A stretch of DNA of 64,000 nt from Escherichia coli (GTDB taxonomy: Bacteria > Pseudomonadota > Gammaproteobacteria > Enterobacterales > Enterobacteriaceae), in the NCBI RefSeq assembly GCF_003790525.1, contig NZ_CP033635.1. One strand, given 5' to 3'. The position numbers and the translations under genes are program-made. Positions 49,933 to 50,319 of the stretch are shown in pieces (the stretch's first letter is position 1; every line of letters starts with the position of its first letter). The notes under the pieces were generated by a model that had not been told where the DNA came from, did no database searches, and saw nothing but the letters and a program-made list of their open reading frames with translations.

Positions 49933-50319
49933 TTAACGATACTTCTGGTGATAGGCGTTGCGGGTCGTTTTCAGTTGCTCTGCGGCAGCCTGCGCTTCTT
50001 TTACTTTACCTTCATTTGCCAGCTTCAGCGCGTCGTCAATCTGACCGACCAGAATGTCGAAACCGTGGCGGAAGTCTTTCATTTCCGGGCTGTCCGGTGA
50101 TTTGCCTTCAAGCTTCGGCGGCGTCGCTTTTTGCGCATCCAGCGCCGCAGCGCGCATTTTAGTTAACGCGTCTTTGACTTGCACCGCGTTATCGGCTTTT
50201 TCGACCACTTTTAAATTGTCGTTGAGGGTTTCCATATTGTCTTCCAGATCAGCGGCAAACGACGCCGAACTGAATACCAATGAGGAGACGGCAAGAATAG
50301 CTAACAGGCTTTTACGCAT
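49933..50319 (-). CDS. cybC: soluble cytochrome b562 precursor, apparently intact
   Basis: 128-aa ORF with signal peptide and CxxxH-like heme-binding C-terminus. Confidence 0.85.

Follow-up and report, generated by a model that had tools for sequence, protein, structure and literature searches.

The cybC gene carried on the minus strand of the window, the 64,000-nt stretch of Escherichia coli DNA analyzed here, is, judging by its sequence, almost certainly an ordinary functional E. coli gene. Its difference from K-12 would then lie wholly on the K-12 side, and the toxin–antitoxin (TA) pair beside it would be unrelated to that difference. The result confirms that the window has the cybC that is normal throughout the species, the K-12 pseudogene being due to a lineage-specific 26-bp deletion.

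The open reading frame comprises 387 nt, with the ATG at 50319..50317 and the TAA at 49935..49933 in the ORF list. The original prediction, which gave no strand, described a full 128-aa cytochrome b562 precursor with a signal peptide, and this was borne out by the ORF itself, by the PF07361 and NF011632 profiles and by alignment with PDB chains. The corresponding features are as follows:

49933..50319, minus strand: cybC coding sequence, 128-aa cytochrome b562 precursor (ORF list, PF07361, NF011632, RefSeq WP_001232253.1 in SMS-3-5)
50254..50319, minus strand: signal peptide, codons 1-22, with predicted cleavage before Ala23 (ADLEDN...); absent from the mature chains 1apc/256b
49936..50253, minus strand: mature cytochrome b562, 106 aa (translation, BL21 comparison, PDB alignment)

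Room had been left at the outset for an overlooked internal lesion. This was looked for, and translation of 49933..50319 on the minus strand revealed neither an internal stop codon nor a frameshift. The product matched Pfam PF07361 (Cytochrom_B562) with E=2.5e-33 and a score of 115.2 bits (cutoff 30); the match spans residues 24-128 and profile positions 1-102 of 102. It also matched the NCBIfam equivalog NF011632 'cytochrome b562' with 192.6 bits (cutoff 130), over residues 2-128 and profile positions 1-127 of 127. The 106-aa mature chains of PDB entries 1apc, 1qpu and 256b aligned without gaps to CybC residues 23-128 (E=8.3e-63), and the 128-aa precursor chain 9tmp_A aligned with the window protein from end to end; a solved structure is 97% identical to the window cytochrome b562. 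In the translation, mature residue 7 is a methionine and residue 102 a histidine, which we take to be the axial haem ligands from what is established for PDB 256B. The signal peptide, as read from the sequence, has a basic n-region, a hydrophobic core and an S-F-A site, and in the window strain it would presumably be cleaved after Ala22. With scores above both profile cutoffs, Met7 and His102, a colinear mature part of 106 aa and a signal peptide, the window product was classed as a cytochrome b562. A 1.8-kb query around the gene was 100% identical to E. coli SMS-3-5 (NC_010498.1), in which RefSeq calls the same ORF cybC (WP_001232253.1) within the gene order nrdD, nrdG, RelE-family toxin, RelB/DinJ antitoxin, cybC, pmbA, yjgA.

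By what is established for cytochrome b562, the N-terminal signal peptide of 22 residues would direct export through Sec and be cut after Ala22, and the 106 mature residues would form a periplasmic four-helix bundle. This bundle would hold one non-covalent b-type haem via Met7 and His102, with an alpha band at 562 nm in the reduced state, and the holo-cytochrome b562 would serve as a small periplasmic electron carrier. To our knowledge, no physiological partner of cytochrome b562 has been described.

The statement, in the original prediction, that the K-12 annotation has cybC as a pseudogene proved correct: the MG1655 record (NC_000913.3) has b4236 (cybC) at 4459488..4459855 as a pseudogene feature, 368 nt long. 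The pairwise alignment with the K-12 region that had been proposed as a check was run. Homology with the window ended at the 5' end of the gene, and the two copies were not of equal length, the K-12 copy having undergone a 26-bp deletion. Two features of the window are concerned:

50301..50326, minus strand: 26 nt deleted in K-12, GTGAGCAATGCGTAAAAGCCTGTTAG, intact in the window (alignment of the window, MG1655, BL21, CUWW06, CE10 and ECSC054)
50326..50332, minus strand: Shine-Dalgarno-like AAGGAAG about 7 nt 5' of the cybC ATG, read from the sequence, with a putative function

Of the 26 nt, 7 precede the ATG and 19 are coding, namely the ATG and the 16 nt after it, which takes in all of codons 1-6 plus the first base of codon 7. 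The deletion thus removes from K-12 the 3' edge of the AAGGAAG site, the ATG and, in total, the first 19 coding bases. At the K-12 junction GGAA is joined directly to CTATTC, and the right-hand side of this junction is the exact start of the MG1655 pseudogene feature; K-12 derivatives match the cybC coding sequence only from nt 20, and the window does not have the K-12-type deletion. The alignment displayed no microhomology at the ends of the 26-bp deletion, whose junction can be placed without ambiguity. Of the canonical in-frame ORFs that remain in K-12, the longest has a TTG start and encodes MVFSSASFA followed by the mature sequence; it has no basic n-region, and the larger part of the signal's hydrophobic core is gone. 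The deletion would be expected to prevent normal translation initiation in the K-12 laboratory lineage and to deprive the product of its signal n-region.

K-12 also has an insertion of about 130 bp upstream of the gene. As an account of the whole K-12 difference it was rejected: BL21, CE10 and ECSC054 share the insertion yet keep a full 128-aa cybC. These alignments therefore make the insertion a common polymorphism in its own right and identify the adjacent 26-bp deletion as the K-12 lesion.

The distribution of the two 5' ends was assessed in 5,426 complete E. coli genomes, with counts that rest on the 5' junction and on coverage of the coding sequence and to which point frameshifts elsewhere in the gene are invisible. 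The coding sequence was present at a coverage of at least 80% in 5,425 of them. A 40-mer spanning the K-12 junction was found in exactly 355 genomes, always with 100% identity, whereas a 79-mer over the intact 5' end was covered to at least 80% in 5,070 genomes and to about 51% in the remainder. The 5,070 intact copies and the 355 with the K-12 junction add up to 5,425, i.e. to all genomes with any match. Sixty rows were drawn evenly across the ranking of the 355, and all 60, as judged from names and sizes, were K-12-type laboratory strains or their transconjugants, among them MG1655, BW25113, DH5alpha, DH1, C600, J53, MC4100, TG1, S17-1, NCM3722 and HMS174. Intact cybC, with 5,070 genomes against 355, is thus the norm of the species, and laboratory derivatives of K-12 are the exception. 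The original prediction had spoken of a minor strain difference. The contrast with K-12 is real, but it had been assigned to the wrong side: the window has the species norm, from which the 355 K-12-junction genomes depart.

An independent lesion was encountered in E. coli 99_0849, in which an IS66-family element, ISEc22, lies in the 5' part of cybC (2011..3820 of the retrieved locus) and the gene is annotated as a partial pseudogene. About 114 genomes had two places matching the cybC query, and three matches were on plasmids; the genomes with two places may include copies split by an IS, as in 99_0849.

Upstream, cybC is separated from pmbA by a short spacer:

50320..50374, minus strand: pmbA-cybC spacer, 55 nt, including a hairpin at 50348..50369 (alignment, hairpin scan, repeat distribution)

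Alignment identified this spacer as an 'empty site', i.e. one without the dispersed repeat of about 130 bp that is present in K-12, BL21, CE10 and ECSC054. The repeat is also absent from SMS-3-5 and CUWW06, and the strain alignment indicated that the ORF is unaffected by it. It measures about 130-139 bp, the filled site in MG1655 being at about 1337..1475 of the retrieved locus, where the MG1655 RefSeq annotation has no repeat feature. To judge by the ERIC primer sequences, it may be ERIC/IRU-like. A copy with at least 90% identity was found in about 3,885 of the 5,426 genomes, and copies with about 72% identity occur elsewhere, for instance in the rhlB-gppA spacer, with a median of three places per genome. 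The hairpin at 50348..50369 is GC-rich and located just past the pmbA stop codon. Its T-run is on the plus strand, antisense to pmbA and cybC, and the coding side has an A-run; if the hairpin were an intrinsic terminator, it would face transcription arriving from the cybC antisense direction, not from pmbA.

A simple consensus scan found no sigma-70 promoter in 49100..50700, the scan being a crude one whose reach includes neither the interior of pmbA nor co-transcription. With a spacer of only 55 nt and no sigma-70 site found, it is therefore likely that the cybC promoter lies inside pmbA or that cybC is co-transcribed with pmbA. An Rfam scan of 48500..52000 (E<=1) gave nothing near cybC; a match to CRISPR-DR57 in the nrdD-nrdG spacer was discarded as being at chance level (19.7 bits versus 39).

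On its 3' side, cybC is followed by a relBE-like TA segment, which contains the following features:

49219..49923, minus strand: relBE-like TA segment, 705 nt (Pfam, NCBIfam, RefSeq, alignment)
49499..49741, minus strand: RelB-like antitoxin (Pfam RelB; NF008412 130.1 bits versus 96)
49219..49509, minus strand: RelE-family toxin (Pfam ParE_toxin 53 bits versus 23; TIGR02385 RelE_StbE 28.0 versus 27.9, a marginal match)
49900..49925, minus strand: terminator-like hairpin 3' of the cybC stop, TTGGGCGGTGAAACGTTACCGCCCAA with a T-rich tail (terminator scan)
49766..49787: perfect palindrome TGTAATGCTATAATGCATTACA, operator-like, 5' of the relB-like gene and overlapping a TATAAT

The RelB/DinJ antitoxin gene precedes the RelE-family toxin gene and overlaps it by 11 nt, which is the arrangement of a type II RelBE system. 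Alignment indicated that the 705 nt stand where TA-less strains have a 35-nt hairpin spacer that separates cybC from nrdG, with an insertion point 9 nt past the cybC stop codon and no obvious target-site duplication. The hairpin at 49900..49925 is part of the inserted segment and takes the place of the hairpin of TA-less strains. The original hairpin between the convergent genes cybC and nrdG having been replaced, the next genes 3' of cybC, on its own strand, are therefore those of a relBE-like operon. The toxin gene ends in a stop codon (49219..49221) that directly adjoins the stop codon of nrdG, which is convergent and ends at 49218. The palindrome at 49766..49787, near which there is a GTAATGCATATGTAATGC repeat, is likely to be the autoregulatory operator of the TA pair together with its promoter. 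The TA was present in about 453 of the 5,426 genomes (about 8%), counting those that covered at least 80% of the TA-containing query. In CE10 the antitoxin gene alone is left, as an orphan (767..1006 of the retrieved locus), and the toxin gene was apparently lost between two CTGGATGA repeats, one at the relB end and one at the relE end.

We also weighed whether the intact-versus-pseudogene contrast could be an artefact of annotation, K-12 cybC being no real pseudogene. What gives rise to this idea is that RefSeq/PGAP records of K-12 derivatives call the truncated gene a 121-aa 'cytochrome b562' CDS (WP_023649327.1), for example in K-12 C3026 (NZ_CP014272.1, 2011..2376 of the retrieved locus). 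The first codon of this CDS is an ATT situated directly at the deletion junction; the CDS has no ATG, GTG or TTG start, no Shine-Dalgarno site and no basic signal n-region, and the first canonical in-frame start in K-12 is the TTG, which leaves only MVFSSASFA before the mature protein. Furthermore, the literature reports no expression of cytochrome b562 in K strains and a transcript far below that of B. Such an artefact is therefore highly improbable, and the 121-aa CDS is probably an automated mis-annotation, because the curated MG1655 record has the same sequence as a pseudogene. Another reading would be that the window copy, though intact, is silent or decaying, its own promoter being absent from the 55-nt spacer and its product dispensable. 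The consensus scan without a sigma-70-like hit in 49100..50700 agrees with this, as does the literature, according to which both K-12 and an engineered B strain can do without cybC. Yet the scan is crude and blind to the pmbA interior and to co-transcription, the short-spacer architecture is also found in other strains (e.g. CUWW06), and the haem ligands, the signal peptide and the Shine-Dalgarno-like site of the window gene are all intact. Moreover, cybC is kept in 5,425 of the 5,426 complete genomes, and its 5' end is intact in every non-K-12 genome. Silence or decay of the window gene is accordingly very unlikely.

The original prediction had also proposed that the intact state of cybC might be linked to the neighboring TA insertion, for example through a single recombination event by which the TA arrived and cybC was at the same time restored or kept. 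The proximity of the two, the TA segment beginning just 9 nt after the cybC stop, and the somewhat diverged cybC allele of SMS-3-5 (94.6% nucleotide identity to K-12) could be taken as pointing this way. This link did not hold up. The K-12 lesion is on the 5' (pmbA) side of cybC, at the end opposite to the TA and more than 370 bp from the insertion point past the 3' end, and full-length 128-aa cybC occurs in every combination of neighbors examined: without the TA in BL21 (repeat present) and CUWW06 (neither repeat nor TA), with the TA in SMS-3-5 (no repeat) and ECSC054 (repeat present), and with an antitoxin-only remnant plus the repeat in CE10. The population counts agree: the intact 5' end occurs in 5,070 genomes and the TA in only about 453, so that about 91% of intact copies are TA-less, and the 26-bp deletion, as assessed with the junction 40-mer and the 60 sampled rows, is confined to K-12-type laboratory strains. 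We consider a link between the TA and cybC integrity to be practically excluded. A different kind of connection, in which read-through from cybC would couple the TA to cybC/pmbA transcription, or in which the new 3' end would shift the stability of the cybC mRNA, is very improbable and not called for by the data; if it existed, the TA would affect the regulation of cybC and not its integrity. The reading that we retain is that of a normal gene in the window and a lesion private to K-12.

That cybC is defective in K-12 is already known, and the window cybC is ordinary in this respect. For the defect in K strains, PMC13041623 cites Trower 1993 (Biochim Biophys Acta 1143:109), and the same paper shows that B-lineage expression strains have native holo-cytochrome b562 in their periplasm. 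The Keio cybC knockout serves as a 'pseudogene' control in K-12 (PMC6945024), and a comparison of B REL606 with MG1655 found cybC to be much more highly expressed in REL606 (PMC3446290). Two practical points follow from the present analysis. The 40-mer over the K-12 junction, found in 355 of 5,426 genomes, all of those sampled being laboratory strains, is a clean marker of K-12 ancestry; and the 121-aa CDS starting on ATT that automated RefSeq annotation assigns to the truncated K-12 gene is probably a miscall.

Among known systems, the closest is CybC of E. coli B (256B/1APC/1QPU), which is encoded at the same locus (nrdD-nrdG-cybC-pmbA-yjgA) as a precursor of the same length, 128 aa, and which is the parent of the BRIL fusion tag. 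The BL21 protein and that of the window have an identical 22-aa signal peptide and share 103 of 106 mature residues, including Met7 and His102; the three substitutions are I17V, A24V and D50G. By its near-identity to the characterized E. coli B protein, the I17V/A24V/D50G allele would be expected to bind haem and to undergo signal cleavage in the same way. The two loci differ in that the window lacks the putatively ERIC-like repeat of the pmbA-cybC spacer and, 3' of cybC, has the relBE-like TA instead of a short hairpin spacer. K-12 b4236 is at the orthologous locus, with 94.6% nucleotide identity to the window over nt 20-387 of the coding sequence; it alone of the two has the 26-bp deletion, the upstream repeat of about 130 bp and, near the C-terminus, the substitutions A100S and Q103K, none of which is present in the window. 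The relBE pair of the K-12 Qin prophage resembles the TA of the window in having the antitoxin gene first and overlapping the toxin gene, with 64% identity for RelE and 48% for RelB. In contrast to this prophage-borne pair, the TA of the window is situated between cybC and nrdG, a site at which it is found in about 8% of complete E. coli genomes.
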